A stretch of DNA of 63,021 nt, counting the filler, from Stramenopiles sp. TOSAG23-6 (lineage: Eukaryota): the NCBI GenBank assembly GCA_900128565.1. It is 11 parts of 11 records of this genome, joined end to end, with 100 filler letters (N's around TTAATTAATTAA, not from the genome) between each part and the next. Parts side by side here need not be neighbours in the genome. Positions count along the whole stretch, not along the records: positions 20,389 to 27,070 come from LT636665.1; 10 more parts are not named here. One strand, written 5' to 3'. Both the position numbers and the translations under genes were made by a program. This document shows positions 1 through 49,828 of this stretch, one piece after another. Numbering within the stretch: position 1 is the first letter of the stretch; each line of letters starts with the position of its first letter. The notes under the pieces are model-generated. The model had not been told where the DNA came from. It made no database searches and saw only the letters and a list, made by a program, of their open reading frames with translations.

Positions 1-59
1 GAAATTTTGTACCTAACAAATTTTAGTTTTTTTTTTTGAAATATTTTTCCAAAAAGCAT
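1..59 (+). mobile_element. 3' half of introner-like intron (ends AT)
   Basis: GAAATTTTGTACCTAAC...GAAATATTTTTCCAAAAAGC-AT at the contig start, followed by an open coding exon. Confidence 0.75.
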
Positions 60-222: not shown

Positions 223-283
223 TTAATAAAAAAAATGTTTTATTCTTTTATTCTACGTAAATTATTTAATCTTCATCATCTTA

Positions 284-3211: not shown

Positions 3212-3532
3212 CTTTTTGAAAATCACAAGGTTATGATTCTGCAATTATTTGATTTGTTTATTGGTTATTATTGAAGAATTGACATTGTTAAATGAATTTT
3301 ACCTATAATTACCGGCAGTAGTAGTGTGTAAGCAAAAATAAATACTGTCAAATACTCTCAAGTTCGACGGTTTCGTACTATAGGTACCGGGTATCGGTAT
3401 TTCAATTAAGAATATTTATTGTTAAATGTCAACAAACAATGAATGAAAGATGAAAGTAAAAGTGTCAATACATTAATTCACAGATCTGATAGTAGAATGA
3501 AGACCAAAAATTTATAAAATAAAGACTCCAAT

Positions 3533-3868
3533 TTACTTTTTGTCTTTCTTTTTCTTCTTTTTCTTCTTCTTCTTCGTATCAAGATTAGCCATTAAATCTT
3601 CTATAGACGCATCTTTTCCTTTACTCTTTGCGGCTTTCGCAGCAAGTTTCTTCTCAGCTTGTCTATCTGCGATCTCTTTCTTTTTTTTCGCTTCCTCTCT
3701 CAAGCGTTTCACTTCCTCGCGCTTTGCTTTAGCATCTGAAGCTTTGTCTGCGTTAAACGCACGGTCTCCTATTCCCGATTTACCACCACCGCCAGCTGCT
3801 TCAGCAGCAGCTTTGGCTTGATTCCGTGCCCTAGCAGTAGCTGATTTTTGTCCATTTCCTCCTCCCAT
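3533..3868 (-). CDS. SERF/4F5-like small basic protein (At2g23090-type N-terminus)
   Basis: N-terminus MGGGNGQKSATARARN. Confidence 0.7.
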   Translation of the reverse strand: MGGGNGQKSATARARNQAKAAAEAAGGGGKSGIGDRAFNADKASDAKAKREEVKRLREEAKKKKEIADRQAEKKLAAKAAKSKGKDASIEDLMANLDTKKKKKKKKKKDKK

Positions 3869-4347
3869 AGTATTCTTGAACTGCTTCTTTGAATTAAAAT
3901 GTGTGCTTATTCGTGACGTTCACTGTAAAAATTTAGACACCGTGGTTACTAATATTTGTGTATTGTGGTGGTGTGCTCTGTGCTGCTGCTCTGTGCGCTG
4001 CTGAATAAATACGTTCACTTCCGTTCACTTTTTCGCACTGGATGAAAAAGCGAGAATTGCGATTGCCGGATTGGTACAAAAATCCGTACCTAAACCAAAA
4101 AAAGAAAAATATATCGGTTAGAAAAAAAAACAAAAAGATTACTACCTACGATACACACTATAGTTGTTGTTGTTGTTGTTGTTGTTATTGTAGACCCTGA
4201 TTATCAAGGTGACAAATTATTTGCAGTCTTTTTCGATTTTATTGTTAGAATGAAAAAACATTGATTCATTGTACGATTAGCCCTTTGCGAGGATTCTGTA
4301 TCATAGTCAAATTAGTTAGTATATAGTATATAGTAAAGTAGTAGATA

Positions 4348-6314
4348 ATGGCAAAAGTAGTACAATCGAGAGAGACAAAAACAATACAGGCATTGGACAT
4401 TCGCGCTCGCGCATCAAGCGACCCTCTTGATTATACTCCAACATTTCTACGACATAGTTCTAAAAATAGAGATCAGAAAACCATAGTTGTATCAGATATT
4501 CATAATAGTAGTAATGGTAGTGAAATAATGGGCTTTTCGCCTGACGAAAAAGTAAACCTTCGTTCAAAAATAGCTCTTGGTATTGGTGAAGCAGCGCAAA
4601 CAATATGGGTACTTGTTGCTGGATTTTATCTTAATATTTTTCTTCTAGAAACATTGTGTATGTCAACGTCAACGGTTGGTATATTTCAACTCTGTGGGGG
4701 AATTTGGGACACAATTAATGATCCGTGCATAGGAATACTTAGTGATAAAACAAATACTCGTTTTGGTCGACGCCGGCCGTGGCTTCTAGGTGCTGCTATC
4801 CCTGCAGGGTTTTCCTATTTTTGTATTTGGATAGGACCAGATATGGGAGAAACAAGTTTATTTGCGTATTGTTTGACTTGTTATATGTTAATATCAGCAA
4901 GCATCACTTCGATTCAAGTTCAAATATCGTCTCGTACGTTTTCAAAATTGATTTTTGTACCTACAGTTTTTTTCATAGACAATTTTGTACCTAACAATTT
5001 TTTTTTTACGAAAAAAAAAAAAAAATATCTCTTCACAAAATTTTCACTCCAGAGTTAACGCGTGATTATGATGAAAGAACTGAGCTTGCCATGTGGCGAT
5101 TAGGTATTGGCAATGTACTTGGATTAATTGCTGTGTTTTTACATTCACTTATAGTTCAAGCTTATCCTGAAAGTTCAAAATTGGATGGATTTCGAATTTC
5201 AGGTTTTGTGATGGGAACAGCAATTTCTTGTTTCGCACTTTTTGCATTTTTCAATATTAAGGAAAAATTTGATATATCAACAGAGTCAAAGGACGAAATA
5301 CCTTTTCTAGTTGGTTTAAGACATGTTTTTTCCAACTTTGCTTTTATTTGTGTTGAGGGTGTTTATTTATTTGGTCTAACCGCAGTGGTGATAGTGCAGA
5401 CAAATCTAGTATTATTCTGTAAATATATTTTAGAAGATGAAAGTCAGGTTTCTTATCTAATTTTACTTGTCCAAGGAATGGCAATGTTGTCTCTTCCCTT
5501 TTGGAATTGGTTCAGCCAAAAGTATAACAAAAAAATAATGTACCATGTTGGTTCACTAGTAGTTGCAATATCATTAGGAATGATGTTTTTAATTGATAAA
5601 GGGGATATAATATTTGGATATTTCATAGCCGGTGCACTTGGTTTTTGTCTGACTGTTGTTTATTTAGTACCGTACGCAATGTTACCAGATGTTATTGAAG
5701 AAGATGAATTGAGAACTGGTAAAAGACGAGAAGGCATATATTGTGGCTTTTTTGTTGTATTTATGAAACTATCAGTCACAGGATCTTTAGCTCTTTCAAA
5801 TTTTGTACTTGGTATTTCAGGTTATAAATCCCCAACTGCTTTGTGTAGCACAGTGTCAACTGATTTGAAAGCAACTGAGTTTTTAGAAACTCAAAAGGAT
5901 TCAGTTTTGTTGGCAATTAGATTAATGATAAGCCCTGTGGCTATTGTGTTTCTAATAGGGGCAAATATTTGTGTACGAAATTATCCAATTACTCGAGAAA
6001 GCCACGCGAAATCTGTAGAATTAGTAAAAGCTAGGAAACAACATGCAAGCCAGGAAAAAACAAATATAAAAACAATGCGTTCTTTAGGAGCCATTGACGG
6101 TTTGAATACATTGGGTGAAACAAAATGTAGTACTCAACATATTGGATTTGGGAAATTACCCGTGGCTGTAAATGATGTAGGTATACGAATTCATGGAGAT
6201 ATTGAATTTGGGAAATTACCCGTGGCTGTAAATGATGTAGGTATACGACTTCATGGAGATATTGAAGATCATGATGAAAGAGATAATGTTAATGATAATG
6301 ACATTGAAAATTAA
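4348..6314 (+). CDS. MFS transporter, GPH/MFSD2 family (exons 4348-4933, 5044-6314)
   Basis: WDTINDP.IG.LSD, RFGRRRPW and MLPDVIEEDE..TGKRREG motifs; splicing restores QISSLTPELTRDYDERT. Confidence 0.9.
4934..5043 (+). mobile_element. Introner-like intron GT-TT
   Basis: GTACGTTTTC...GTACCTAAC...CACAAAAT-TT; removal restores the SLTPEL motif. Confidence 0.8.
6140..6265 (+). repeat. 60-bp coding tandem duplication (IxFGKLPVAVNDVGIRxHGD x2)
   Basis: Two near-identical 60-nt units. Confidence 0.9.
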
Positions 6315-6418
6315 AATGTAATGTAAAGGTATTTAAAATAGTAACATATGAAGTAAAATATGAAGTATAATGAAATCAAATTAATTTGATGAGCAAATTT
6401 ATATATTAATTTGTTTTC

Positions 6419-6697
6419 TTAAAATTTGACTTTATTCAATAAATTTAAAGATACTTCAATTCCTTCTATATACAAACAACTTTTCTTTACAAAAACTCTT
6501 TTTGTGTTATATTTTGCTTCATATTTTGCCAAATATTCATTCATTACTTTGAGTAAATCTGTATATGAAGATTGTTTCTTTTTCAAAACTCTATAAAAGG
6601 CAACGATTGTAATCCAAATAATATGTTCTACAACAATTCTCATTTGCGATGGAAACGAATTTGTTTTATTGTTTTCATTTCGATTTGTTTCATTATT
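6419..6697 (-). CDS. C-terminal fragment of an unknown gene
   Basis: Open frame running into the contig end. Confidence 0.35.
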   Translation of the reverse strand, partial: NNETNRNENNKTNSFPSQMRIVVEHIIWITIVAFYRVLKKKQSSYTDLLKVMNEYLAKYEAKYNTKRVFVKKSCLYIEGIEVSLNLLNKVKF

Positions 6698-6797: not shown

Positions 6798-7080
6798 GAA
6801 ATTTTGTACCTAACAAATTTTAGTTTTTTTTTTTGAAATATTTTTCCAAAAAGCATACACCGTGCTAAACAAATAGGAGTGACTAAAAGTTTAGAAATAG
6901 GACCAGGTAACGTTCTTTCTGGATTAATGAGAGCTGAAGGAATTAAAAGTGTATCGTGTAATGGTGATCATCTTTGTGATTTGGCTAGTTTAAATGAAAT
7001 AGTAAAGTTTATGAAATGATTAATAAAAAAAATGTTTTATTCTTTTATTCTACGTAAATTATTTAATCTTCATCATCTTA

Positions 7081-10008
7081 TCATAATTCTTCATCGTCTT
7101 CGTATTCACTTCCCGTATACTCTTCATAAGAATCATCATCTTGATTATTTTTACCATCCGTTAGAATAGGAAAGTCTGAATTTTGAATTTGCTTTTCATT
7201 TTCATCATATACAAATTGTTTTGGGCCACTTTCAAAAATCAAACTTTTTCCGAAAATATAACTGAATTTTTCGAGTCGTAGCCATCGCCCGTATTGATCA
7301 TTCCATTTTTCACGATTCGATTTCATCAATCCTCGCAATTTTGTTTTTCTTCGAAGATGGTGTTTTTTATACAATGTATTCAATTTTGTATTTATCCCTT
7401 TTTTCGAAATATATAAAGGCAATAATGAAGCCAAAAAGATAAAACTTGCAATCATAAAAGTTGTTAAGATTGTACCATTTGTATCATTTTGAGTAACTCT
7501 ATAATAACTATGTCTTACTTGCAAGCCTTTGCCATACGTTTCAACTCGTCCATTGAGTGGATCTCTTCGTAGAACATTGACATAATAACTGACATTATTC
7601 TTGACGTAAATATCTTCATACGCCCAACCTGATACAGTCCAATTACCACCACCATGACCACCTTCACTACCAGTACGATGCGCACTAGGTTCATTCATAT
7701 TCAAACTATTTGTATTCCAAAGTCTTTCAGAAGCAGCAGCTACAGTCTCATATACACGAGAACTTGCCATGATATTTGATGGTTCGAAGTTACCGATGCT
7801 CATCAAATATTTCAATCTTCTATTTCCTTCATTTTCTGATTTATTATCTGTACTATCCGTATTATCTGTATCCGTGACATTTCTATCTTTAAATGGCGTA
7901 CTTTCATGACGATTTGTAGCTTGTATTGAAATACCATTTCTTTCAACACCACATCCTGTCCACATCACACAGTCAGTAGGTGGAACATTTACACCACAAG
8001 AACCTCTCTCACGAATATTTGCGTTACAATCACTTCCATCTTCATGTATCAAAGTATGACCAAAACTATCCATTTCCGATTTGCAATCTGGCCGCTCAAC
8101 ATAATTTAATAAGTATTGCTCTCGCTCTACATTTGTAGTTTTCCAAAATACTCTAATCATAGGCAAATTTCTACTAGGAATTTCCACTGCACAAAGCGAG
8201 TCGACTAATACTGTTGGTACACATTTACCTTGGTGAGAAGTCTTGTTTTTATTTGTATTCAATGATTCTTTTGGTAATTCTGAACCATCTCGTGAACTAT
8301 CTAATAATCCCCATAACCATCCCGGTGATTTAGGAAGAACCCAATCAAAATTTACTATAGAATCCTTCTTTGTATCTGGTTGAAAATTACAGCAATGTAA
8401 TAAACATTTCGATTCGTTGTCGTCAAAGTCGCTACACTTCATTGTACTATCTATGATTGCATCAGTCATGTTGACATAAAGAGGATGTGCATTTGGTACA
8501 TGAAGAGATTGGGCATAGGTATAATCTTGTACACCTATAGGATTGGCATCACTTAATGTACTTGCATCATTTGCCTTGAGTTCGACACTTACTGAAAATG
8601 AACTCGATGATAATCCATACACGGATATTAACCATCCCCCATGGGTTACTGGTAGAGATATAGTTTGTATTGAAGAAACGTAGTTAGATTGACTTACAAT
8701 AGGTGAATGACTTACAGGTCGGTATTTAGAACTGATTTGAAGTTTGAGTCCTCCGAGATCTGTTATTGATGCTTTTGTCAATGTAAGAACTATTTCACAT
8801 GCAGAATCACATTGTGCTTGAAGTATTGAACTCTGACTTCCTAAAATATTTATTTCAAGAATAATATCATCAGAATCAGTTAACTCTGTTTCAAATTTTA
8901 TCTGCGTAGATGTAATTCCAAATCCTGCAACATTTGCAATTTTTTCTTTCAAACTTATTAAAGTAGCATTATCTTTCATTTTCGATACTATGTTATCTCC
9001 TGTAGCTTTTAAACGAATGATCACATCCTTTATTCCATGAAACCCCCAACAATTTTCACCAAAATTTAAAGCAGGATATTTAACAGAAGAATGTGATAAA
9101 GCTTCAGCAGCCGCAATATCCGCAGCTTCTTTTGCCTTTTCTATTGCAGCATTTACATCCACTGTACCAAGACCATCATTTTGAGCCTTTACCTTTGCAT
9201 CAAAGAGTGTCTTTGATCTCGCAGTGTTTTCAGCTGAATACCTTTCAATATCAACCAAAAAGTCATCAGGTCCTTGTGGTAAATATCCAGTATTCTTATC
9301 TGGAAATGGCCACGTCATTTTAGATCGAGTACCCTTTACCGTTGTGTTGTTCCCAGTATGTGATGCCGGAGGTGTAGTTTCGAATAATTGCCACATTTTT
9401 TGTCCTTTCCAAAGAATTTGTGGTTTCACAAAAATTTCAGATAAACCAGAACAAGGTTCCAGTTTAAATGTAATAGTAGCACCACTTGGGTTGTGTAGTG
9501 CTTTTATATTCTCTGCGTCTAAAACATAGTGATAATGTTTATATCCACCAACATCAACGGTATCTCTAATTTCATCCCAATAACCAGAAAGAGGAATACA
9601 TTTAATACCTTTCTCTACAGTAACTTTCTCTTCTTTTAAGTCTTTATCAAACACTCGTTTTTCATATGACAACATAGAGTTTGGGTTTTTATACAATTTT
9701 GCTGTACTAAGAGAGTTTATCCCTGAAATTTGTAAATCTTTTCCATCAAGTAATCCCAGAGGATCTTCACAGGCTTTATAACGATAAGGGAATAAATGAG
9801 GGTCTTTCAGACCAATATCCATCCCAGTATCGGAAAGATCTGTGGGTTGTTGAACAATTAATATATCTGATGGATTTTGAGAGTATGCTACATTAGTTGC
9901 AATAACTATTCCCACTTGAGCATTGGGTAGAGTTATGAAAAAGTTATACACAAAGAAGACATTAAATGCAAATATTACTACACCACAACTATTGCGAAAG
10001 CAGGACAT
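7081..10008 (-). CDS. Duplicate of the 284-3211 membrane protein
   Basis: Identical ORF. Confidence 0.65.
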   Translation of the reverse strand: MSCFRNSCGVVIFAFNVFFVYNFFITLPNAQVGIVIATNVAYSQNPSDILIVQQPTDLSDTGMDIGLKDPHLFPYRYKACEDPLGLLDGKDLQISGINSLSTAKLYKNPNSMLSYEKRVFDKDLKEEKVTVEKGIKCIPLSGYWDEIRDTVDVGGYKHYHYVLDAENIKALHNPSGATITFKLEPCSGLSEIFVKPQILWKGQKMWQLFETTPPASHTGNNTTVKGTRSKMTWPFPDKNTGYLPQGPDDFLVDIERYSAENTARSKTLFDAKVKAQNDGLGTVDVNAAIEKAKEAADIAAAEALSHSSVKYPALNFGENCWGFHGIKDVIIRLKATGDNIVSKMKDNATLISLKEKIANVAGFGITSTQIKFETELTDSDDIILEINILGSQSSILQAQCDSACEIVLTLTKASITDLGGLKLQISSKYRPVSHSPIVSQSNYVSSIQTISLPVTHGGWLISVYGLSSSSFSVSVELKANDASTLSDANPIGVQDYTYAQSLHVPNAHPLYVNMTDAIIDSTMKCSDFDDNESKCLLHCCNFQPDTKKDSIVNFDWVLPKSPGWLWGLLDSSRDGSELPKESLNTNKNKTSHQGKCVPTVLVDSLCAVEIPSRNLPMIRVFWKTTNVEREQYLLNYVERPDCKSEMDSFGHTLIHEDGSDCNANIRERGSCGVNVPPTDCVMWTGCGVERNGISIQATNRHESTPFKDRNVTDTDNTDSTDNKSENEGNRRLKYLMSIGNFEPSNIMASSRVYETVAAASERLWNTNSLNMNEPSAHRTGSEGGHGGGNWTVSGWAYEDIYVKNNVSYYVNVLRRDPLNGRVETYGKGLQVRHSYYRVTQNDTNGTILTTFMIASFIFLASLLPLYISKKGINTKLNTLYKKHHLRRKTKLRGLMKSNREKWNDQYGRWLRLEKFSYIFGKSLIFESGPKQFVYDENEKQIQNSDFPILTDGKNNQDDDSYEEYTGSEYEDDEEL

Positions 10009-10329
10009 CTTTTTGAAAATCACAAGGTTATGATTCTGCAATTATTTGATTTGTTTATTGGTTATTATTGAAGAATTGACATTGTTAAATGAATTTTACC
10101 TATAATTACCGGCAGTAGTAGTGTGTAAGCAAAAATAAATACTGTCAAATACTCTCAAGTTCGACGGTTTCGTACTATAGGTACCGGGTATCGGTATTTC
10201 AATTAAGAATATTTATTGTTAAATGTCAACAAACAATGAATGAAAGATGAAAGTAAAAGTGTCAATACATTAATTCACAGATCTGATAGTAGAATGAAGA
10301 CCAAAAATTTATAAAATAAAGACTCCAAT

Positions 10330-10665
10330 TTACTTTTTGTCTTTCTTTTTCTTCTTTTTCTTCTTCTTCTTCGTATCAAGATTAGCCATTAAATCTTCTA
10401 TAGACGCATCTTTTCCTTTACTCTTTGCGGCTTTCGCAGCAAGTTTCTTCTCAGCTTGTCTATCTGCGATCTCTTTCTTTTTTTTCGCTTCCTCTCTCAA
10501 GCGTTTCACTTCCTCGCGCTTTGCTTTAGCATCTGAAGCTTTGTCTGCGTTAAACGCACGGTCTCCTATTCCCGATTTACCACCACCGCCAGCTGCTTCA
10601 GCAGCAGCTTTGGCTTGATTCCGTGCCCTAGCAGTAGCTGATTTTTGTCCATTTCCTCCTCCCAT
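10330..10665 (-). CDS. Duplicate SERF/4F5-like protein
   Basis: Identical ORF. Confidence 0.7.
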   Translation of the reverse strand: MGGGNGQKSATARARNQAKAAAEAAGGGGKSGIGDRAFNADKASDAKAKREEVKRLREEAKKKKEIADRQAEKKLAAKAAKSKGKDASIEDLMANLDTKKKKKKKKKKDKK

Positions 10666-11144
10666 AGTATTCTTGAACTGCTTCTTTGAATTAAAATGTG
10701 TGCTTATTCGTGACGTTCACTGTAAAAATTTAGACACCGTGGTTACTAATATTTGTGTATTGTGGTGGTGTGCTCTGTGCTGCTGCTCTGTGCGCTGCTG
10801 AATAAATACGTTCACTTCCGTTCACTTTTTCGCACTGGATGAAAAAGCGAGAATTGCGATTGCCGGATTGGTACAAAAATCCGTACCTAAACCAAAAAAA
10901 GAAAAATATATCGGTTAGAAAAAAAAACAAAAAGATTACTACCTACGATACACACTATAGTTGTTGTTGTTGTTGTTGTTGTTATTGTAGACCCTGATTA
11001 TCAAGGTGACAAATTATTTGCAGTCTTTTTCGATTTTATTGTTAGAATGAAAAAACATTGATTCATTGTACGATTAGCCCTTTGCGAGGATTCTGTATCA
11101 TAGTCAAATTAGTTAGTATATAGTATATAGTAAAGTAGTAGATA

Positions 11145-13111
11145 ATGGCAAAAGTAGTACAATCGAGAGAGACAAAAACAATACAGGCATTGGACATTCG
11201 CGCTCGCGCATCAAGCGACCCTCTTGATTATACTCCAACATTTCTACGACATAGTTCTAAAAATAGAGATCAGAAAACCATAGTTGTATCAGATATTCAT
11301 AATAGTAGTAATGGTAGTGAAATAATGGGCTTTTCGCCTGACGAAAAAGTAAACCTTCGTTCAAAAATAGCTCTTGGTATTGGTGAAGCAGCGCAAACAA
11401 TATGGGTACTTGTTGCTGGATTTTATCTTAATATTTTTCTTCTAGAAACATTGTGTATGTCAACGTCAACGGTTGGTATATTTCAACTCTGTGGGGGAAT
11501 TTGGGACACAATTAATGATCCGTGCATAGGAATACTTAGTGATAAAACAAATACTCGTTTTGGTCGACGCCGGCCGTGGCTTCTAGGTGCTGCTATCCCT
11601 GCAGGGTTTTCCTATTTTTGTATTTGGATAGGACCAGATATGGGAGAAACAAGTTTATTTGCGTATTGTTTGACTTGTTATATGTTAATATCAGCAAGCA
11701 TCACTTCGATTCAAGTTCAAATATCGTCTCGTACGTTTTCAAAATTGATTTTTGTACCTACAGTTTTTTTCATAGACAATTTTGTACCTAACAATTTTTT
11801 TTTTNCGAAAAAAAAAAAAAAATATCTCTTCACAAAATTTTCACTCCAGAGTTAACGCGTGATTATGATGAAAGAACTGAGCTTGCCATGTGGCGATTAG
11901 GTATTGGCAATGTACTTGGATTAATTGCTGTGTTTTTACATTCACTTATAGTTCAAGCTTATCCTGAAAGTTCAAAATTGGATGGATTTCGAATTTCAGG
12001 TTTTGTGATGGGAACAGCAATTTCTTGTTTCGCACTTTTTGCATTTTTCAATATTAAGGAAAAATTTGATATATCAACAGAGTCAAAGGACGAAATACCT
12101 TTTCTAGTTGGTTTAAGACATGTTTTTTCCAACTTTGCTTTTATTTGTGTTGAGGGTGTTTATTTATTTGGTCTAACCGCAGTGGTGATAGTGCAGACAA
12201 ATCTAGTATTATTCTGTAAATATATTTTAGAAGATGAAAGTCAGGTTTCTTATCTAATTTTACTTGTCCAAGGAATGGCAATGTTGTCTCTTCCCTTTTG
12301 GAATTGGTTCAGCCAAAAGTATAACAAAAAAATAATGTACCATGTTGGTTCACTAGTAGTTGCAATATCATTAGGAATGATGTTTTTAATTGATAAAGGG
12401 GATATAATATTTGGATATTTCATAGCCGGTGCACTTGGTTTTTGTCTGACTGTTGTTTATTTAGTACCGTACGCAATGTTACCAGATGTTATTGAAGAAG
12501 ATGAATTGAGAACTGGTAAAAGACGAGAAGGCATATATTGTGGCTTTTTTGTTGTATTTATGAAACTATCAGTCACAGGATCTTTAGCTCTTTCAAATTT
12601 TGTACTTGGTATTTCAGGTTATAAATCCCCAACTGCTTTGTGTAGCACAGTGTCAACTGATTTGAAAGCAACTGAGTTTTTAGAAACTCAAAAGGATTCA
12701 GTTTTGTTGGCAATTAGATTAATGATAAGCCCTGTGGCTATTGTGTTTCTAATAGGGGCAAATATTTGTGTACGAAATTATCCAATTACTCGAGAAAGCC
12801 ACGCGAAATCTGTAGAATTAGTAAAAGCTAGGAAACAACATGCAAGCCAGGAAAAAACAAATATAAAAACAATGCGTTCTTTAGGAGCCATTGACGGTTT
12901 GAATACATTGGGTGAAACAAAATGTAGTACTCAACATATTGGATTTGGGAAATTACCCGTGGCTGTAAATGATGTAGGTATACGAATTCATGGAGATATT
13001 GAATTTGGGAAATTACCCGTGGCTGTAAATGATGTAGGTATACGACTTCATGGAGATATTGAAGATCATGATGAAAGAGATAATGTTAATGATAATGACA
13101 TTGAAAATTAA
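11145..13111 (+). CDS. Duplicate MFS transporter (intron 11731-11840)
   Basis: Identical ORFs. Confidence 0.9.
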
Positions 13112-13636
13112 AATGTAATGTAAAGGTATTTAAAATAGTAACATATGAAGTAAAATATGAAGTATAATGAAATCAAATTAATTTGATGAGCAAATTTATA
13201 TATTAATTTGTTTTCTTAAAATTTGACTTTATTCAATAAATTTAAAGATACTTCAATTCCTTCTATATACAAACAACTTTTCTTTACAAAAACTCTTTTT
13301 GTGTTATATTTTGCTTCATATTTTGCCAAATATTCATTCATTACTTTGAGTAAATCTGTATATGAAGATTGTTTCTTTTTCAAAACTCTATAAAAGGCAA
13401 CGATTGTAATCCAAATAATATGTTCTACAACAATTCTCATTTGCGATGGAAACGAATTTGTTTTATTGTTTTCATTTCGATTTGTTTCATTATTNNNNNN
13501 NNNNNNNNNNNNNNNNNNNNNNNNNNNNNNNNNNNNNNTTAATTAATTAANNNNNNNNNNNNNNNNNNNNNNNNNNNNNNNNNNNNNNNNNNNNCGATCT
13601 AGCGACAGATCTAGGAAGGGAATTTCTCTAAATACG

Positions 13637-14880
13637 ATGCCTCCTGCAGGGGATGATGTTATTTTTGGTGAAAATGTCATGGGTGAAAAGACTGGCCATT
13701 TGCAGATGGATTCATTTGAAGAAATGTTAAAACTCCTTGTAAATGCGGGGTATTTTCGTGCAGGAAATACAGGCCTTAAAATGTTCGACAAGATTATAGG
13801 TGGCCTCTGTTGGTGTATAACTGCGAGTGCTGCGAGTGTTGATGTTGANNNNNNNNNNNNNNNNNNNNNNNNNNNNNNNNNNTTGGCAAAAAAGTCACAT
13901 TATCTGAAACTGTTGTTCGTTCTTTGGAGCGTATGAAGTGCCCACATCCTTTAAAAGCACATCAAATTCAAGGTCTCGATTTCGCTGCGTTACTTCCTAT
14001 CATTAAATGGGCAGTGAAAGGTGTTGTTGCTTTTCGTGTGGATAACGCTCGCCGTATACGCGACTATTCGCATCATCACTTTCAAAAGCATAATCAATGG
14101 CCTGATGAAATGGACAAAAAGTCAAATTTTTTACATGAGCTGGAAGAAAAATATAGACCGCGTCGCGTAATGAAACGCCCCGTTGAGTTATGGGGGGATC
14201 TTGATAATAGTTCAGAACGTGAGTTATTGCAGACTTGTTTATTAAAATATATCTGTGTCGGAGCAAGATACTGAAGATGCACGAAATCTCGATGGAAAAC
14301 GAAAGAAGAAGAAGAAAACAGGATTTGACATGAAAGTTTCGGACCTTTTCAAATTAGAAGCCGAGAAAGAAGCTGAGGCTCAGAGACAAGAATCTGAAAA
14401 AGAAAAAGAATTATTAAAAGTATTAGCGGAAACAGCAGACGTTGAAGAAAAACAAATTGATAAGAAGCAGGTTGGTTCAATTATGATGCAAGACGTAGAC
14501 AGTATTACATCAGCTGCAGGTACGTTTTCATCTTTTTTCAAATTTATTTTTTTTCGTACGCAATTTTGTACCTAACGATTTTTTTTTTAATTTTAAAAAA
14601 AAAAAAATATATTTTTTACAATAACGATAAAGAAACAAAACTGCTTCAGAAAACGATCCAAGATCGCGAGCCACAAACAAAACGTGGCTTAGAAGCTGCG
14701 TACGTTCTACACTTTTAGATACACTTTTAGATTTCAATATTTTTTTGCTAGAAAAAATCATAACTGACAATTTTTTTCTACATCAAAAAAAAATATTTTT
14801 TCACAATACATATTTAAACGTCGTTTAGCTAATATTGAACGCAAAATAGCCGAAGCAGTTACAGAAAATGCAAAAGATAA
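13637..14880 (+). CDS. CCDC93: Coiled-coil domain-containing protein 93, partial (gap, frameshift near 14250, two introns)
   Basis: LLVNAGYFRA....FDKIIGGLCWCI and MKCPHPLKAHQIQGLDF motifs. Confidence 0.85.
14520..14626 (+). mobile_element. Introner-like intron GT-CG
   Basis: GTACGTTTTCATC...GTACCTAAC...TACAATAA-CG; frame restored (SAADKETK). Confidence 0.7.
14700..14811 (+). mobile_element. Diverged introner-like intron GT-AT
   Basis: GTACGTT...CTGAC...TCACAATAC-AT; frame restored (EAAFKRRLANIERK). Confidence 0.7.
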
Positions 14881-20388: not shown

Positions 20389-20464
20389 TATTTCAAAAAA
20401 AAATTCGTTAGGTACAAAATTTCGTATGAAAAATAAATTCGAATTTGAAAAAAAAAAAAGATAC
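20389..20464 (-). mobile_element. 5' part of introner-like intron (donor GTATCTTTT)
   Basis: Family core present, truncated by the contig end. Confidence 0.75.
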
Positions 20465-23400
20465 GTTGGTATCAATAATTGAGTCTGACCCAAAATTATA
20501 TCTTTGTCTGAAATTGGTTCTCGAAGTGAACCACTTCGTTGAATCTCTTGCAGTATTTCATTATCACCATACAAGAACGCAAGTTGATTTACAGTATCAA
20601 TATCTCTTTGATTTTTACACTCAATGAGGGCTTGTCCAGAAGGATTTCGAGCATACAATGAAATTTTTAATTTATATGGCACAGAATTTTCACCATCATT
20701 TCGTGCTTCTGGAAACGGTTTTATCATTACACTTTCATTCCATTGGACAAAATGCTCCGGTATAGAGAATTCAATTACACGTATCCATAAAGGAAATCCA
20801 CATTCAACAATAGTCTCTTTGGCAACTGTTATTGGCAAGTTTTTAACCGAAATCCAATCACCGCGCGATTTAATTTTGTTATTTGCTTGATATAATGATT
20901 TTTCTTCTCGTACTATCGTAGTGTTCAACACATTCGCTGCACAGTGTGTAATGATACTACCTGGTAATATGACGTCATCTGCTTCAGAGTCTTTTGTTAC
21001 ACTAGTCACCAGAAGACCTTTATCATGAACGACGAGACCTAATAAGTTAAGACTAAACAAATCAGTTTCAAAGCGAACAATTTTTTTTGTTTCCTCGCTA
21101 ATAGAATCATTCGTTGTATTTGTTGTGGTCATTTTTTTACACTTTGAGCGTGCTGGTGCAGTACATCGAAATGTTTCGTCGTCACATAACGTTGCTACAG
21201 CATATACATTATTACTTATTTTGTTCTTTGCACAAATATGAGCTATTTGAAAATTAACACAAACCTGTTGCATGTCAAATATAGGTTCAATAGTCTTAAT
21301 ATCCTCTTTTACAGCAAAACTTTCTTTTGTTTCAACATTTTGTTGTTTACTCTTATGTGTTGGTTGTAATAAAGGATTCAACAAAGGTATGTTAAAAACA
21401 GTATGAAGTCTCATTCTATTTTCAGTAGCAATGAACAAAGAATTTTCAAGTATTAAAAGTTGTGCTGCTAAACGACACATAAATAAATTTTCCTTCAAGT
21501 GACGTAAAACTGTACATTCCAATACTTCTTTATACCAATTATCGTTATCCACAATTTCTTTTTTCTCCTCACGATTTCGATGATTTCGTTGTTTACTTTT
21601 TTTAGGCATTTCATTTTTTAATTTCCAAAATAGAAGACATTCGTCTTCAACTTTGATAGTATTGACATATTCTACATTAAACAATGACTCTTTTTCATTT
21701 ATTTCAGTGAATTTATCTACATTCCTGACTTCAGATGTAATGATTGATGATGATCCTCCCATTACGTGTAAATAGCCTATTTGTAGATCTGTGCGACATT
21801 TTTTTGTAGTTGTAGTAGTAATATTTCCACTCTGTGCGATGAAACTTTTATCTCGACTTATCTTTATCCAATTGTCATGTATATCTTTTTTATTAGGTAA
21901 TTTCCGTCTTTTTCCTTTCTCAGATTTCTTAGAATTGAATAATTTTTCTACGATTTCTTCAATATTGACATATGCCGACAAAGAAACTATACAACTACCC
22001 AACATGTATTTTGTAAAAATATTTCAAAAAAAAACTAAAAATTGTTAGGTACAAAATTTCGTACGAAAAAAAATAAATTCGAAATTCAAAAAAAAATAAA
22101 ACATACATTACATTATCCTGTTTTGGATCAAGTATATACAATTCAATATTTGCATTAGCTATAAAGTTTCTTACACAAATCTTTGCATCCATAGCACTCT
22201 CCTTACATTCATCGATAATCATCGACAAAGGTAACCCAAATACAATTTCACTCAATACAGAATTTAAATTGGTCGATTGTTGAGATTTATTAGGCTCATA
22301 TATTGGATATTTCCATTTGATTTCGTGTTGCGTGGTACTTTGTACATTTTGTTTTGCTTCGCGTTTATACCAATGAATGTTTTCAATGATTCTTTTACAA
22401 AATTTCATAGTTAAAGAATCCAAGTGCTTCATCTTATCACAGTCCATAGCAACACAAGCAATCACCTTATTAAAACACAATTTTTTATTGCAAGCTTTAA
22501 TAAAGCCAGTGCTAAATAAATGTGAAGCAAATGCACCACCAATATTCAACCATACATATAATAATGATATATTATTGGTCATATTACTTGTACTAGCATT
22601 ACATAATAATGGTACATTTTCATCATAGATAGATTGAAGACGATCCTTGGCAAAAACGAGTTGTTGTATATAAGACGAAATATAATTTATTCCCTTGTTG
22701 ATCAACTGTTTACGTTGGACATTAACATCATCAAATTCTCCCTGCAGTGAGAAAAATATACTACAATCGATATTCGTTAGGTATGATACAAAAATTGGAT
22801 TAGGTTCAAAACAAAAATAATTTGAAATGAATTATGGAAACATATATATTCCTGAATACAAGTACCAGCATCATTGTACAAATGTGGAAGGTCGCTGATA
22901 ATACACTCTTTGTTTACTCCATCTGTTGTTACTATTGCTTGCAACTTTCGTCTATAATTAAAATTAGTCTTACTTTCCTGCTCATCAGAGGTATCTAAAT
23001 ATATATAAGAATTCTCAGTATCATCAAGTGAATTTCTCTGAGCACCAACAATATCCATATCTATATCAAAACGCTGTTCGTGTGTTTCATTGGAATTGTT
23101 CCCTACATTACATCTTACACCAACTTCATCCACTCTAACATAATCTATCGATTTGCCATTCGTTGATTCGCCCACATTCGTCATCGGCATACATAAAGGC
23201 GAAATACAAAGATGTCGATCTAATTCTGGCGCAGTCCACGTGAATACACTACTTGTTAGAGGTGGCAATATATTGTGAAAAATATCTTTAATTCGACATT
23301 CGTTAGCTACACAATTTCATTAGAAAAAAAATAAATTTGAAATTCATGATGAAAACGTATCAAATAAAAACTCAAAAAAAAAATTTCATTAGAAAAAAAA

Positions 23401-25608
23401 TAAATTTGAAATTCATGATGAAAACGTATATATAAGACCTGTACTAAAATCAGTACCTTTCTGTCTGACAAGTAATGTATCTATAGTGCACTGGTTTCTC
23501 ACACGACATCGAATACTACTCAAATTCTCCAAAGGTCGAAGTATAACAAATATTATACCAGAATGTGAAACAATGTTGATATCAATATATTGAGTCTCAA
23601 AAGATAGATCACCACCACCACTGTTATTTTTACCACTCAATGTGGATATAATACTAGTTTCATTCATATGACGTCGAAGACCAAGTATAGTACTTCCTAA
23701 TTTAGTAACATTAAATCTACTTGACCAGGTCCAGTTTATATCGTTCGCGTGAGATTTATCTGTTACAAATCGAGTCTGCAAAAATCCAACATCTTTTGTG
23801 AAATCACTCCAATGCCATGATGCGAGGTCTCCTGCTTGCAATCGTATGATACTACCTTTTAGGATAGTACTGACATTACCATCTATATGACTTTGTCCAA
23901 ATTCCATTTCAAAGTTTGTAAAGTTTTTGATGCGTAATTGAGGGAAAAAATGGATCTCTCGGGATCGAAAGAAAATACCTGGAGCATCGCGTAGAAGAAC
24001 ACCAATTTGAAACTGACTTCGACAATCACCTTCCGCTTGAACTTCTAAAAGTTCTGGTAATCCAACTTTTTGAAGATCAAATTGTGTGGACCATTTACTT
24101 TCAAGTGACATGAATCTACGATTTGCACTCAAACGTCGAATCAAAGCAAATTGCGTTGTATATCGAATGGCAAGGAGCCAGTCGATTAGTTGTTTTTCAG
24201 TACTGAATTTTAGTAGAGCATTCTTTTGATGTATTGATTTCGTTGTACTAGAACATTCAATACTTAAAATGAATGACTGGGACATTTTTACAACTTTACT
24301 TTTAGTTGGAATGTATTTTGGAAAAATATTTCAAAAACAAAACTTAAATTTGTTAGGTACAAAATTTCGTACGAAAACAAATTGGAATTTGAAAAAAAAT
24401 AAAACATACATACACCGAGAAGGACACGACACAGAATTAGATGTAATTTCTGTGGTATTGTTTACTTGTGAGAATCCATGAGATCTCAGACGAGACACTT
24501 TAGTATCCACAGTCAATGAAATATTTCCAATACACTCATTTGAGCCATAAGGTTTTTGTTTTAAACCATGCAATATAGGTAATATAGCTTCAATACACTC
24601 ACCTGAATCATCAAAGACTTTTGAGTTTGGTGGTGTAGGTAATGAATCTATGATACCCATTTTATGCTCTTCTTTACAAGGAGTCATATTCAATTCACTT
24701 TGTTTTACATTTTTAGTTAATTTTGTAGAAATGTTTTGGTCGACACTAAAATATTGAAATAAAGGGACTTGACTACAAGCCCAAGAAATATTCCCTCTAC
24801 GCCCGCCCATGTATTTTGGAAAAATATTTCAAAAAAAATCTAAAACAATTGTCAGGAACAAAATTTCGTACGAAAAAAAAGAACGAATTTGAAAAAAAAT
24901 TAAACATACATACTAATCTTACCAAATACTTTTTGATATTTTTTACCGTCAACACTGATTTCAAATGAATCATCTAAATTGTATAAGCTTGGTAATCCAC
25001 TTACAGTATTACCAATAGTATTAATATCAAACATTTGCTCTATATCTCGTGTATATTTTGGTATTGTTGATGTATCTCGGATACAGATCGTCATGTACTG
25101 TAAAAAAATATAAGTTCCGTTTAATTCTTTTGTAAGGTAAAACGAATAGAATAAAAACTCAAAAACAAAATATTCTCTTAGGTACAAAATTTCGTACGAA
25201 AAAAATAAATTAAAAAAAATTCGAAAACGTACACGTGTCGTCCACCATCAATAATGGACTGATATTCACCAATAAGAGGCAGCTCTGTCCAGACTGGAGT
25301 AGATAGATAACTTTCCCCGTTTGAATAAACATCAGTCTTGTTTTGTGCCAACATGATCGGAACATTTCGTATTGATAAATCAATTGAGTTTACATCAATT
25401 ATAACATGACGACATGAAATATCAGTTCTATACGATTTTTCATCTATATCTTGTGGTATTTTTTCAGTTTCATACACAATTTTTGATGCTATCGAAGAGT
25501 TACCCCATATACCACAACCAGGTGTTACAATAAATTGCACAGAACTGTTTGGTTGAATCGTTGAAGGTGGTCCTTGATTGTTTAGCTTATCTTCATCTTT
25601 GAAAAGAA
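20465..25608 (-). CDS. VPS13: VPS13-family protein, partial, 7 exons
   Basis: SHR-BD/VAB-like motifs (QIGV....APGIF.RS.EIHFFPQLRIKNFT, WSSRF, RVRNQC...L.VRQKG...LPP..S.VFTW) plus PH-like and PDZ-like segments; exons join in frame. Confidence 0.75.
22004..22106 (-). mobile_element. Introner-like intron GT-AT
   Basis: Frame restored QDNVMLGSCIVSL. Confidence 0.85.
22742..22845 (-). mobile_element. Diverged introner-like intron AT-AG
   Basis: ATATGTTTCC...CATACCTAAC...CTCACTGC-AG; frame CIQEYGEFDD. Confidence 0.75.
23268..23429 (-). mobile_element. Introner-like intron AT-AT with duplicated 5' half
   Basis: ATACGTTTTCATCATG occurs twice; frame GLILPPLTSSVFTW. Confidence 0.8.
24311..24409 (-). 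mobile_element. Introner-like intron GT-AT
   Basis: Frame SRCIPTKSK. Confidence 0.85.
24809..24909 (-). mobile_element. Introner-like intron GT-AT
   Basis: Frame GKISMGGRRG. Confidence 0.85.
25093..25232 (-). mobile_element. Introner-like intron GT-AT, extended
   Basis: Frame DGGRHVTICIRD. Confidence 0.8.
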
Positions 25609-25660
25609 ACGTATTGTGAAAAATATGTTTTTAGTTTAAAACTTATTAGGTACAAAAAAA
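25609..25660 (-). mobile_element. 3' half of introner-like intron (ends GT)
   Basis: GTACCTAAT...CACAATAC-GT. Confidence 0.7.
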
Positions 25661-27070
25661 TGTCGCACAGATCTACAAATAGGCTATTTACACGTAATGG
25701 GAGGATCATCATCAATCATTACATCTGAAGTCAGGAATGTAGATAAATTCACTGAAATAAATGAAAAAGAGTCATTGTTTAATGTAGAATATGTCAATAC
25801 TATCAAAGTTGAAGACGAATGTCTTCTATTTTGGAAATTAAAAAATGAAATGCCTAAAAAAAGTAAACAACGAAATCATCGAAATCGTGAGGAGAAAAAA
25901 GAAATTGTGGATAACGATAATTGGTATAAAGAAGTATTGGAATGTACAGTTTTACGTCACTTGAAGGAAAATTTATTTATGTGTCGTTTAGCAGCACAAC
26001 TTTTAATACTTGAAAATTCTTTGTTCATTGCTACTGAAAATAGAATGAGACTTCATACTGTTTTTAACATACCTTTGTTGAATCCTTTATTACAACCAAC
26101 ACATAAGAGTAAACAACAAAATGTTGAAACAAAAGAAAGTTTTGCTGTAAAAGAGGATATTAAGACTATTGAACCTATATTTGACATGCAACAGGTTTGT
26201 GTTAATTTTCAAATAGCTCATATTTGTGCAAAGAACAAAATAAGTAATAATGTATATGCTGTAGCAACGTTATGTGACGACGAAACATTTCGATGTACTG
26301 CACCAGCACGCTCAAAGTGTAAAAAAATGACCACAACAAATACAACGAATGATTCTATTAGCGAGGAAACAAAAAAAATTGTTCGCTTTGAAACTGATTT
26401 GTTTAGTCTTAACTTATTAGGTCTCGTCGTTCATGATAAAGGTCTTCTGGTGACTAGTGTAACAAAAGACTCTGAAGCAGATGACGTCATATTACCAGGT
26501 AGTATCATTACACACTGTGCAGCGAATGTGTTGAACACTACGATAGTACGAGAAGAAAAATCATTATATCAAGCAAATAACAAAATTAAATCGCGCGGTG
26601 ATTGGATTTCGGTTAAAAACTTGCCAATAACAGTTGCCAAAGAGACTATTGTTGAATGTGGATTTCCTTTATGGATACGTGTAATTGAATTCTCTATACC
26701 GGAGCATTTTGTCCAATGGAATGAAAGTGTAATGATAAAACCGTTTCCAGAAGCACGAAATGATGGTGAAAATTCTGTGCCATATAAATTAAAAATTTCA
26801 TTGTATGCTCGAAATCCTTCTGGACAAGCCCTCATTGAGTGTAAAAATCAAAGAGATATTGATACTGTAAATCAACTTGCGTTCTTGTATGGTGATAATG
26901 AAATACTGCAAGAGATTCAACGAAGTGGTTCACTTCGAGAACCAATTTCAGACAAAGATATAATTTTGGGTCAGACTCAATTATTGATACCAACGTATCT
27001 TTTTTTTTTTTCAAATTCGAATTTATTTTTCATACGAAATTTTGTACCTAACGAATTTTTTTTTGAAATA
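25654..27070 (+). repeat. Inverted duplicate of ~20389-21805 (probable chimera)
   Basis: ORF 25697-27118 is identical to part of ORF 20341-22005 on the other strand. Confidence 0.9.
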
Positions 27071-30945: not shown

Positions 30946-32288
30946 ATGCATCGCTTCAAAATATTTGCGACGACAACCGTGTTTGGATTTGGTTGTGGAT
31001 TTGTGTTCTTTAACGGCAAAAGCTTAATAAGAACAAAAAAGCTAGAAGCAGCTTCTTCTTCAAGTATTATAACTAGTGATGATCTAGTGCTTTACTGTGA
31101 TCGTAGTATGGTTGCTGCCAATAATCCATGCGAAGATTTCTCTGATATACGTGTTTCAAAAGCAGAGGATTGTCATATGGATCAGCTTGGAAATCGTGTT
31201 TGCAGCAAGACCACTACTACAGCTAAAAATGATGACCCCAGCACTTATGATAATGACACAGTATTGCTTGCTGGTGTATTCGATGGCCATGGAGGATCCA
31301 GGGCAAGTGAATTTGTCAAAACAAATCTTTTTAATAGTATAGAAAAACAAATAGTTAAAGACCACCAAAAAACACGAAAAAAACACAAAAAACACCTCTC
31401 ACTTGGTGAGGTTCTAGGTTTTACAATGCGAAATGTTGATGAAGCTTTCAAAGCTTCCGTATTGGAAGAATTCCTGGACGGTAATTGGAAATTAGCGAAT
31501 GTGGGAACTTGTGCAATTATTTCTGCAATTACCAAAAGTAATATCTATATAGCTAATTGTGGTGACTGTAGAGCGGTACTTGCAATACGAAAAAAAGACT
31601 CTCTAGTACCCATTCAATTGTCGAATGATCACAACGCGAGGGAAGTGAGTGAGCAGAAGCTACTGCAAAGTGCGCACTCGGACGAGCATAACGTCGTCGT
31701 GCAGTTTGGAGAAAATCCATACTATGTCAAAGGTGTTTTGCAGTGCACTCGAAGTATCGGAGATTATTATTTGAAAGATTCGACATTCAACAAACATCCG
31801 ATGCCAAATATTTTTGTAGTCCCAGAACCTTATCACCCTCCATATGTAACTTCAAATCCTGAAGTTTCAACTATACCTCGCGATAATAACCAGGCATTTT
31901 TAGTCCTTGCTTCAGATGGCTTATACGACGAACTTTCAAATTCGGAGGTTATAAAGATTGTTGAAAACTGGTTGCATTTGCCAGTGGAAGAAAAATCTAA
32001 AATTTCTAGCAGCCAAATGCTGATTGATGCTGCACTAAAAAATGCTTCAAAAGAAACTGAAGTCCCTTTAGAAATTATTAAGTCCATGCCATGTATGTTT
32101 TATTTTATTTTTTTGTATGAATTTATTTTTTATAAAAATTTTGTACTTAACAAATTTTAGTTTTTTTTTTTGAAATATTTTTCCAAAATACATGTGGTCA
32201 TCTACGCAGAGAACTTCACGATGACATTACTGTAATTGTAATACATTTTGAAAATTTCTCTAAAGATTGGAAAAAGGAAATTCGTTAG
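30946..32288 (+). CDS. PP2C protein phosphatase (exons 30946-32092, 32194-32288)
   Basis: GVFDGHGG, ANCGDCRA, LASDGLYD; spliced exon gives RRELHDDITVIVI. Confidence 0.93.
32093..32193 (+). mobile_element. Introner-like intron GT-AT
   Basis: Removal joins SMPCGHLRRELHDDITV; CATGT repeated at both ends. Confidence 0.9.
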
Positions 32289-32552
32289 GTACAAAATTTT
32301 GTACGCAAAAAAAAATAAATTTGAAATGAATGATGAAAACAAAGAGTAACGCAAGATGAATCTCAGATCTAGATCAGCAGTAAACATTATTATATAATCA
32401 TAAAGTGTGTTGTTTTCTTCATTAATTTCAAATTTAAACATTTTTTCATACAAAAATGTGTACCTAAAACAAAAATATATATTTCTTATTTAGTTCAATT
32501 TATTAATACGATATAATCCTATTATTCACCTATCAGTAAAATCACTTGAAAT

Positions 32553-47523: not shown

Positions 47524-49828
47524 ATGCACCAAATGATTCTTCGTATCTTTGAGTATGTTTATAATTAGGGTTGGGGTTTCGATTATTTTTAGACGTTTTA
47601 GATATTTTAGTATTATTTTTAGTATATCGAAATGTTGAACGAGAGTGAGTCCGATTATGAGTTCGTCGCGACCGACTTGAAGAATGCTCTGAAGATTTAC
47701 TGTCTATTTTAGATTTTGTATTCTTTGGATTAAAAATAAATAAAGGTACTGGGTGGGAAGGACGTTAATATTGTAGAAAAATATGTTATATTTTTGAAAA
47801 ACATCGTTAGATATAAAATTTGTTTTTATGAAAATGTACGATGAAAAAAAAAATGAAATAAGTGAATACAAATTCAAAAATATTTTTGAAATATTTTTTT
47901 CATAGTAAAATTTGTACCTAACAAAAAAAAACAAAAAAAACAAAAAAATGAAATGTAAGTGAATACCGTACAAGTCAAAACAGATACAATCACATCCAAC
48001 ACCAGATCGTTTCATGCGCGCATGTGTTAAATCACTCAAGTCTGTGTCAACACGAAATGTTCCATTTGAAGCTGTGAGTAGTTGAATGGTCATACCACTA
48101 CTACCTAAATTTCGATCAACATAGGAAACATCAAAAATATTGAGTGTGAGATTTACAGCTTCTAAAATATTACCACATGTATTGTGAAAAAAAACAAGAA
48201 TTTTACAAAAAAAAAAAAATCGTTAGGTACGAAATGTACTATGAAAAAAGAAAACTATAAAGTAATACATTCATGATGAAAACGTGCATTCACCCGTTGA
48301 CAGAGAAACACCATTTGATTTAAGCCTGTGGTGAAACGCATGTATTTTGGAAAAATATTTCAAAACAAAAAATTCATTAGGTACAAAATTTCGTACGAAA
48401 AAAAAAACGAATTTGAAAAAAAATAAAACATACATGGAAACGGCGTCTAAATTTAGGTAATAAAGAAGTCCAATCACTGACTGCATCATTACTACATTTA
48501 ATCTCTTCATAGAAATCGTGAAATATTTTTTCGTGATTATTCTTTTTTTGCTTTTGTTTTTGTTTAGAATTAATTCGGTTTTTACGAAATTGATGCTTCC
48601 GACGGGATTTTTGATTTAGTTTATTATGAGTTCTATTACTATTAAGATGTATGGTACGACGCCGTCCAAGAGTGGTGGGATTAGTATTTGTGTTTTGATG
48701 AATTTCACCTCGGGCGAATAAGACTACACTAAATTGATGTCGGACTCCCATGCCTGTGCACTTCTTTAAAAAACATCTTAGAAAAGAGTTAAACATAATT
48801 TCCCAAATCATATCACCACTAGGTGTTAGAACAAACATTTCCAAACTGACTTGGATTAACAGAACTAAATGACACGATCTAGTACGACAGATATATTTTG
48901 TAGAGTTTTTAGTGACACCTGAGAAAACGCAAACCTGTTCTGGTCCTAGTCTATTCTCAGCGAGCTTCCCTAATTCAACACTAGTAGCTAAACCACGAAC
49001 GCGACCACTATCTAAATTTAATTGTGTTAATGCTGAATTATGACCACGAACAAGTTGTTCTACCTTAATCCCAACACCTGCAACATCGGCATACTGAGTT
49101 GAGAATAAAGTTCTTCCTTTCAAAGCTTCACGGACTGTTGGTGAAAAAGTATGTCACACAAAAAAAAATCGTTAGTTTGTCATAAAAAAAAAGAAAAATA
49201 AATTTGAAATTCATCAACGCCACGCACCTGCCCACATCTCAGCCAAATCAATTGTAGACCCAAATCCAAAAGATATCTCTACAAAATCAACACTTGTTAA
49301 TGTATGAGTTGTTTGTCGGAGCCAAACTAGCTGTCGAGCTTGGACATCAAATGCTTCGGCGACTCGTTTGGCAAGACTAATTTTCATGTTTCCACGAACG
49401 CGATCTTTTATAGCGACGACCAATGTCAAACGTCGCTTTTCATCATTCGGATGCTCCAGTTCGACTAATGTACCGGATCTAAGACTAGGAAATATCTCGG
49501 GGTTGATTACAAGTTCTTGAGAAGAAAAATCACTATCATGAACATAAAGAGAGCATTGAACAGGTTTTAGTGGTGTAAGTTCAGCTGGAGGTGGTGACAA
49601 CCAAGCTTTCTTTTTTAGACGTCGCATTCCAAGGCGCCATTTATCTTTTGCATCGCTTGAATCGAGGCGACTTATGACACCCCGGGAAACACTCCGACCG
49701 TCAGAACGATTACGGCGTTGACCACGTAATTGAAGTTGGAGTCTTGTATATTCATTCTGCTTCTGGAGATGAGCAAGCCTAGATCGCCTAGTCTTGCGTA
49801 CGCTCGGATGGAAGTGCGACTGACTCAT
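47524..49828 (-). CDS. DEPDC5: GATOR1 subunit DEPDC5/Iml1, N-terminal part
   Basis: Spliced product contains ELVINPEIFP, RTRSCHLVLLIQVSLEM, GNILEAVNLTLNIF...VDRN and CFDLRPSHPVPLF. Confidence 0.9.
47766..47971 (-). mobile_element. Introner-like intron GT-TA containing an inverted family core
   Basis: Removal gives CICFDLRPSHPVPLF, collinear with the DEPDC5 motif. Confidence 0.8.
48177..48287 (-). mobile_element. Introner-like intron GC-AT
   Basis: GCACGTTTTCATCATG...CACAATAC-AT; frame STGECGNILEAVN. Confidence 0.85.
48340..48433 (-). mobile_element. Introner-like intron GT-AT
   Basis: Frame RRRFHAFHHRL. Confidence 0.88.
49135..49227 (-). mobile_element. Diverged family intron GT-AG
   Basis: GTGCGT...ACTAAC...CACCAAC-AG; frame EMWAVREAL. 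Confidence 0.85.

Follow-up and report, generated by a model that had tools for sequence, protein, structure and literature searches.

We examined introns with unusual ends in a 63,021-nucleotide stretch of DNA (hereafter the window), made of contigs joined by N spacers, from the assembly of Stramenopiles sp. TOSAG23-6 (GCA_900128565.1), a 21-Mb, AT-rich, incomplete eukaryotic assembly that contains exact and inverted duplicates. These introns are likely to be copies of one transposon-derived intron family (an introner) removed by the major (U2-type) spliceosome. The first-pass annotation of this DNA had reported four donors, ATATGTTT at 22845, ATACGTTTT at 23429, GCACGTTTT at 48287 and GTATCTTTT at 20464. 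All four are real and were found in place on the minus strand, each in a copy, about 100 nt long, of a family spread over the whole genome, with the branch box of the family 57-127 nt downstream. The relaxed ends that it had described were also recovered: AT..AG at 22845-22742, AT..AT at 23429-23268 and GC..AT at 48287-48177.

The family consensus reads (CAT)|GTAYGTTTT, a T-rich spacer, TTTTGTACCTAAC, a second spacer and TTTTYCAMAATAYAT|, with a median length of 100 nt. We counted donors over the whole assembly with a pattern made of TACCTAAC, a gap and the donor core, in which only the first two donor bases were changed. GT was matched 4449 times, AT 236 times, GA/GC/GG 220 times and TT/CT 37 times, for 1, 3, 3 and 2 matches, respectively, with the reversed-pattern controls. 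Non-GT starts make up 493 of the 4942 matches (10%), counts that take in assembly duplicates and some secondary matches within an intron. The relaxation also covers GA and GG donors, which had been missed at first: among 100 listed GV matches, read by eye, about half were GC, a third GA and an eighth GG. A pattern of branch plus acceptor gave 2216 matches. The branch box is highly conserved (319 observed for 12 expected), with the branch A about 42 nt before the intron 3' end. In an unselected 653 kb, single departures from the consensus amounted to 9/139 at +1, 10/140 at +2, 9/139 at +3 and 15/145 at +5, and to 2/132 at each of +6 and +7. Changes at +1 and +2 are therefore about as frequent as those at +3 and +5, and GT is conserved no better than the neighbouring positions. 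At +1, A was found 236 times and a pyrimidine 37 times; at +5, also a G, the figures were 200 and 168, with patterns that additionally required AT|GT and with T at +5 perhaps overcounted where the G has been lost from the T run. The large excess of A over pyrimidines at +1, unlike +5, suggests that +1 is still selected as a purine.

A set of introns was then assembled from about 1 Mb deliberately enriched for non-GT sites. Donors were called by an exact match to the +3..+10 core, a masked profile scan having been dropped since it was misled by poly-T; of 290 distinct introns called, 235 with a clear acceptor were kept and 55 dropped. The combination usual for U2-type introns, a GT or GC start with an AG end, was found in 6 of the 196 frame-supported introns of this non-GT-enriched set.

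The variable acceptor, which the first-pass annotation had not explained, is largely the duplicated target site. When neither the last two bases of the intron nor those of the upstream exon were AT, the two pairs were identical in 22 of 40 cases; permutation gave a mean of 6.6 and a maximum of 15, and none of 2000 permutations reached 22. No duplication signal was detected at positions -3 to -6. On the strength of this pattern, we interpret the identity as a 2-bp target-site duplication round an element with putative short inverted ends. The mobile element would run from GTAYGTTTT to YCAMAATAY, flanked by a duplication that is mostly AT, and the intron would consist of the element plus the downstream duplicate, hence the usual GT..AT ends and the exact excision. 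The 4942 donor-plus-branch matches at unrelated sites, together with the 2-bp duplication, are features of an introner. AT donors are spread over subfamilies (the nearest neighbour has the same donor in 0.29 of cases, for 0.24 expected). Since AT starts form no subfamily and vary independently of the element's 3' end, they appear to be independent point changes.

Family copies were seen close together in both orientations at 47766-47970 of the window, inside an IML1 gene, and at 32240-32500, as a pair between two genes; integration both ways round would be consistent with a DNA transposon. Elsewhere in the assembly, frames of PHIS/Harbinger-type DDE transposases are present at L199 389-1648 (+) and on both strands of L200; one of these frames is adjoined by a second frame, and four identical copies are present.

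The element ends, GTAT.TTTT and AAAATAC, look like short inverted repeats, in that their profiles show short complementarity. Together with the variation at both termini, this could suggest that the introns are removed by a structure-guided, non-spliceosomal route through the inverted ends, as for the nonconventional introns of euglenids, the terminal bases being irrelevant. We find this very improbable, given that the two ends do not covary: A at +1 occurs with C at -3 in 37 of 56 introns, and variants at +2 keep A at -4. Pairing of the two intron ends was rejected on this ground. Moreover, the donor is complementary to U1 and the branch box is conserved to the degree given above.

U1, U2, U4, U5 and U6 were all found in the assembly. 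The U5, U2, U1 and U4 genes form a head-to-tail cluster of 640 bases (L033, positions 9-645; G000:C1146), and U6 is on another contig. The branch-reading stretch of U2, loop 1 of U5 and the ACAGAGA box of U6 match the Rfam consensus. The putative U1 5' end reads AAACGUACAUG, where the Rfam consensus is AUACUUACCUG. It carries three changes, U2 to A, U5 to G and C9 to A, which face +7 T, +4 C/T and exon -1 T, respectively, so that it is the exact complement of CAT|GTACGTTT, the donor of the family. To judge from this complementarity, U1 would bind the family donor over 11 nt. With pairing scored over 11 positions, the means for frame-supported donors with this U1 and with a canonical U1 were 9.8 vs 7.2 for GT, 8.6 vs 6.2 for AT, 9.1 vs 6.4 for GC and 8.7 vs 6.2 for GA. 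A search of the assembly for a canonical U1 5' end accompanied by an Sm site was negative. The match of U1 to the family donor indicates an adapted ordinary (major) spliceosome and not a minor one. The GUAGUA of U2 is unchanged, and the branch box GTACCTAAC, read by eye, pairs with it with one extra bulged C. Loops I and II of U1 depart from the consensus protein-binding loops. As to proteins, the match from a zf-U1 search is a long protein, not obviously U1-C, and a zf-CCCH search did not identify U2AF35. The METTL16 family was not found in this incomplete assembly, whereas SNRNP27 was; loss of METTL16 has been linked to donors with U at +4 (PMC10581693), and its absence here, an argument from absence, fits the +4 C/T donors. 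In metagenome scans, which may leave out near-identical genomes, the U5-U2 cluster and the intron family each had 0 matches, and no relatives were found. The best matches to a cullin shared 43-55% identity and did not place the organism.

Are the non-GT donors used? Removal at the predicted ends kept the frame better than +1/+2 shifts for 47/56 AT, 11/13 GC, 10/11 GA and 133/153 GT introns, non-GT donors (68/80) doing so as often as GT donors. A register of -2, which would give a variable start and an AC end, was rejected: over 61 informative junctions it created 7 stops, as against 0, it created one more at 22845, and it contradicts the RNA joints given below. Homology led to the same conclusion in two genes. 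Removal of an AT-AT intron joins UvrD residues 224|225, directly after the DEFQD motif and in exact colinearity with solved UvrD, and removal of a GA-AT intron joins GlnRS 198|split codon|200, colinear with solved GlnRS (Pfam positions 161 and 164). Searches of the PDB with two short exons, which bear on a predicted AT-AC junction in arginyl-tRNA synthetase, gave no useful match. In a thiamine-diphosphate enzyme gene (L042), presumably ILVBL-like, removal of eight introns with AT, GC, GT, GA, GT, GT, GG and GT starts leaves a single 320-codon frame.

For the window contig, a search of sequencing runs gave shares of only 0.05-0.11, which carry no weight as evidence. Four runs (X1-X4) were aligned to the L042 locus, which lies outside the window. 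In the RNA run X4, one contig passes over 6985-7147 and a second over 8315-8438, and the resulting joints, 6984>7148 and 8314>8439 at the leftmost placement, coincide with predicted GT-AT introns. Exact excision of the element with its duplicate is visible in the DNA pattern and, for two splices, in RNA. In the first of these contigs, the pieces also start at 6919 and stop at 7257, where a GC-AT and a GA-AT joint are predicted, so that RNA covers two GT-AT introns by a full joint and one GC and one GA intron from one side. Runs X1-X3 contained mostly unspliced sequence, their depth being concentrated on repeats; their joints link different intron copies and were disregarded. At 3237-3342 of the same locus, an AT-start copy lies between two unlike exons, which we take to be riboflavin-synthesis-like and PAN2-like; an X1 contig departs from the assembly within this copy, where a mis-join at a repeat is probable.

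In the window, both AT donors lie in a VPS13-like gene on the minus strand. The first intron (22742..22845, 104 nt; donor TAT|ATATGTTT, AG end) has its branch box, TACCTAAC, at 22776..22783, and its removal keeps the frame; its AG acceptor at 22742 is degenerate and was set by the frame, the masked profile favouring 22740 (score -2.8). The second (23268..23429, 162 nt; donor TAT|ATACGTTT, AT end) contains a tandem duplication of about 55 nt, with a second donor-like copy at 23360; the frame is kept with the outer donor copy, the inner one having only 8 open codons upstream. Between them is a 422-nt exon (22846..23267), the start of which aligns with the VPS13 relatives P0001 and P0003. The exon upstream (23430..24310) encodes a VPS13 adaptor-binding (VAB) domain (PF25036, E 1.4e-10). 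Three further introns of the gene, at 22004..22106, 24311..24409 and 24809..24909, are GT-AT members of the same family. Excision of 24311-24409, 23268-23429, 22742-22845 and 22004-22106, two of which start with AT, yields one open frame of 1291 codons, with which P0001 is collinear on either side of both AT introns (171-448 and, weakly, 1162-1286). The GC-AT intron (48177..48287, minus strand, 111 nt) lies in an IML1/DEPDC5-like gene, and its removal keeps the frame. Homologue searches with the VPS13 exon and with the IML1 exon returned no match. The fourth donor belongs to an intron cut by a contig end (20389..20464, minus strand), with a GT donor carrying C at +5 (GTATCTTTT); it is the same intron as that at 26995 (+) in an inverted duplicate, its acceptor missing beyond the contig end. 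With the own U1, the donors at 22845, 23429, 48287 and 20464 pair at 9, 9.5, 9 and 7.5 of 11 positions, and with a canonical U1 at 6-6.5.

Other parts of the window contain further copies and features. Ends defined by position are TT for the family intron at 4934-5043 (+) in an MFS transporter gene and CG for that at 14520-14626 (+) in CCDC93, and the frame fits in both. A 5-base exon (57322-57326, +) stands between the family introns 57222-57321 and 57327-57423. TTAGGG repeats form a telomere-like stretch at 61159-61600 and also occur inside some intron copies. The stretches 1-6697 and 6798-13494 are an exact duplicate contig, and 20389-21808 and 25651-27070 are a 1420-base inverted duplicate, as is typical of assemblies from amplified single cells. 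The region 41553-47376 (+) encodes a very long repeat protein rich in Gly and Ser, a stretch of which may be a peptidase S74 chaperone domain.

Several observations weigh against the splicing of these non-GT introns by an adapted major spliceosome. The putative U1 gene, the loops of which are diverged, scored 54 bits (E 8e-12), whereas the Rfam gathering score is 69.5, and for 73 of 272 branch boxes the searched span contained no donor with at most one mismatch. Residues 1164-1562 of Prp8 are nearly identical to human Prp8 round the loop that contacts the 3' splice site, so that no protein change there explains the tolerance. Transposase with matching ends was not found, the PF13359 loci that were examined having no such ends. 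At the L042 locus, none of the runs X1-X4 gave an RNA joint that crosses an AT donor; the GC and GA joints are listed from one side only, on one contig of depth 2.4 from a strain slightly unlike the assembly, and in the GC-AT case an out-of-frame GT four bases on fits by position as well. An in-frame GT occurs within 30 nt for 50 of the 67 frame-supported non-GT introns, with the same acceptor in 33 and with an AG acceptor in 17 more. All three non-GT introns of the window have such rivals: four in-frame GT-AG pairs at 22845, with U1 pairing of 4-7, in-frame GTs at -6 and -24 of 48287, with pairing of 5/11, and a GT at 23438 next to 23429. At this last site the homologues split 1:1, P0001 preferring the AT donor (79 vs 71) and P0003 the GT (70 vs 57). 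Use of the two AT donors of the window, which have in-frame GT rivals, is a prediction.

These GT rivals, the preference of one of the two VPS13 relatives for 23438 and the similar variation at +1/+2 and +3/+5, which drift could yield, would also be expected if the U2 machinery were adapted but most non-GT copies had decayed, being retained, poorly spliced or cut at a nearby GT. We consider this unlikely. Indeed, 17 of the 67 introns have no GT rival at all, and a rival pairs with U1 equally well in only 1 of 67. Colinearity with UvrD and GlnRS requires the non-GT donor, the X4 contig ends at 7257, before the GA and not at the GT four bases further, and pyrimidines are depleted at +1. It is also highly improbable, more so than structure-guided removal, that the non-GT starts arose as errors of amplification or assembly in this amplified genome, rich in repeats. 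The assembly does contain exact and inverted duplicates, together with one or more probable mis-joins at intron copies, as in L042 near 3237-3340. However, about 10% of the copies are affected, with a 6:1 bias toward A at +1, and unspliced contigs span the GA donor at 7258 (X2) and the AT donor at 3237 (X1) with at most one unlisted difference each.

The first-pass annotation had left the choice between a derived U12 system and a U2 system with relaxed terminal recognition, and had proposed to decide it by a search for snRNAs complementary to the donors and for minor-spliceosome proteins. No U11, U12, U4atac or U6atac (RF00548, RF00007, RF00618, RF00619) was found at E<=1 in the incomplete assembly, with 41-50 candidates scored per search; complementarity was found in the major U1 instead. 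The SNRNP25 and PDCD7 families (PF18036, PF16021), the two minor-spliceosome subunits searched, gave no match in the incomplete assembly, in a search that had no positive control. Because the assembly is incomplete, absence of these U12 parts is not proof. The U12 donor RTATCCTT and branch TCCTTRAC were found in 0 of the 235 introns, and neither TATCCT (271 observed for 294 expected) nor TCCTTAAC was enriched. The candidate U12 donor GTATCTTTT was rejected as a variant of the family with a pyrimidine at +5, such variants being common (168 matches). A derived minor spliceosome, as in Physarum, would account for the AT/GT interchange and for the AT-AG, GT-AT and AT-AT ends, which Physarum U12 introns also show (10.1101/2020.10.12.336362). 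It would also account for the mild enrichment of a final C with A at +1 (6/56, vs 5/177 with G at +1; p 0.025). However, in three of the six AT-AC cases the exon ends in AC, that is, in a duplicated target, and the donors fit U1. With a branch A about 42 nt from the 3' end as well, we regard the U12 reading as the least probable of all, and it was the second reading, a U2 system with relaxed terminal recognition, that was supported, in line with the five major snRNAs and the exact complementarity of U1.

We therefore return to the major spliceosome and propose the following scenario. U1, changed at three positions, would pair over 11 nt with CAT|GTACGTTT, and this duplex would hold the register even where +1 or +2 is mismatched. 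At the other end, the acceptor would be set by position, through the branch box and the fixed 3' motif. With a long U1 duplex, a strong branch box and a fixed 3' motif, both cut sites would be set by position; as a consequence, point changes at +1 and +2 could be tolerated in about 10% of the copies, almost only to A at +1, and to C, A or G at +2. The usual contact between the first and last bases of an intron is known from yeast work; here it is probably no longer a checkpoint, because most introns lack a final G. In its broadest form, our proposal is that one transposon family retuned the major spliceosome of this lineage: U1 would have been rewritten for the element end and for the duplicated target, including exon -1, and neither terminal dinucleotide would be proof-read, so that introns starting with AT, GA, GC or GG and ending with AT, TT, GT, AC, AA or AG would be spliced efficiently by a conserved U2/U5/U6/Prp8 core. 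We hold this broad form only tentatively, its chances being slightly short of even.

Few eukaryotic signals are conserved as strongly as the GT and AG of intron ends, and tolerance of A at +1 is usually read as a mark of the minor spliceosome. Here it accompanies the major one, and an AT start alone is thus no basis for calling U12 introns. The lineage offers a natural test of the contacts truly needed by the catalytic core, and one in which the link between a transposon invasion and a U1 change can be followed base by base. For annotation, the consequence is that thousands of its introns will escape gene finders.

Our literature search, which covered few subscription papers, returned no paper that describes this combination, nor one with a U1 change opposite exon -1. 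Related systems exist. The non-canonical U2 introns of Fritillaria borealis also have a transposon origin and a target duplication, with inverted ends like those proposed here, YAY closing both exon and intron, and frequent AT 3' ends, and they are removed by the major spliceosome, the minor one being lost, as its parts were not found here (PMC13326754, PMC11282704). The differences are that Fritillaria donors are mostly AG and diverse and that its U1 5' end is unadapted by sequence, duplication of U2AF and m6A changes being invoked instead, whereas the present system has GT in 90% of its donors, a single dominant family and a changed U1 (PMC13326754). In Entamoeba and Mastigamoeba, the U1 5' end is altered to fit an atypical donor, as here; Mastigamoeba U1 shares the ACGUAC core and Entamoeba U1 the extra A facing +7. 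The changes described for them face +3, +4 and +7, whereas here C9 to A also faces exon -1 T, and transposon-like introns with non-GT and non-AG ends are a feature of the present system unlike theirs (10.1101/2022.06.08.495308).

The introners of Micromonas, Aureococcus, dinoflagellates and Amoebophrya resemble this family: they comprise thousands of similar short introns, with one splice site drawn from a target duplication and with terminal inverted repeats, as is proposed here. Unlike in these, a 2-bp, mostly AT duplication acts here as acceptor and no autonomous element was identified; U1 is reported to be apparently absent in Amoebophrya, whereas here it is present and fitted (PMC11282704, PMC12130899). 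ISL2EU transposons of the PHIS superfamily likewise make a two-base 5'-AT-3' target duplication. Their target is A|AT|T (PMC4482050); in the present family, G is the base that usually follows the duplicate, and the PHIS-type transposases of this assembly lack ends matching the family. Finally, the transposon-expanded U12 introns of Physarum polycephalum share AT and GT starts and the same range of ends, and their snRNA also coevolved with a transposon-like intron. Unlike in Physarum, no U12 donor or branch motif and no minor snRNA was found here, GA, GC and GG starts are common, and the branch point lies about 42 nt from the end (10.1101/2020.10.12.336362). The feature is real: it is probably a case of transposon-driven, non-canonical U2 splicing accompanied by a change in U1, and the U12 reading is rejected.

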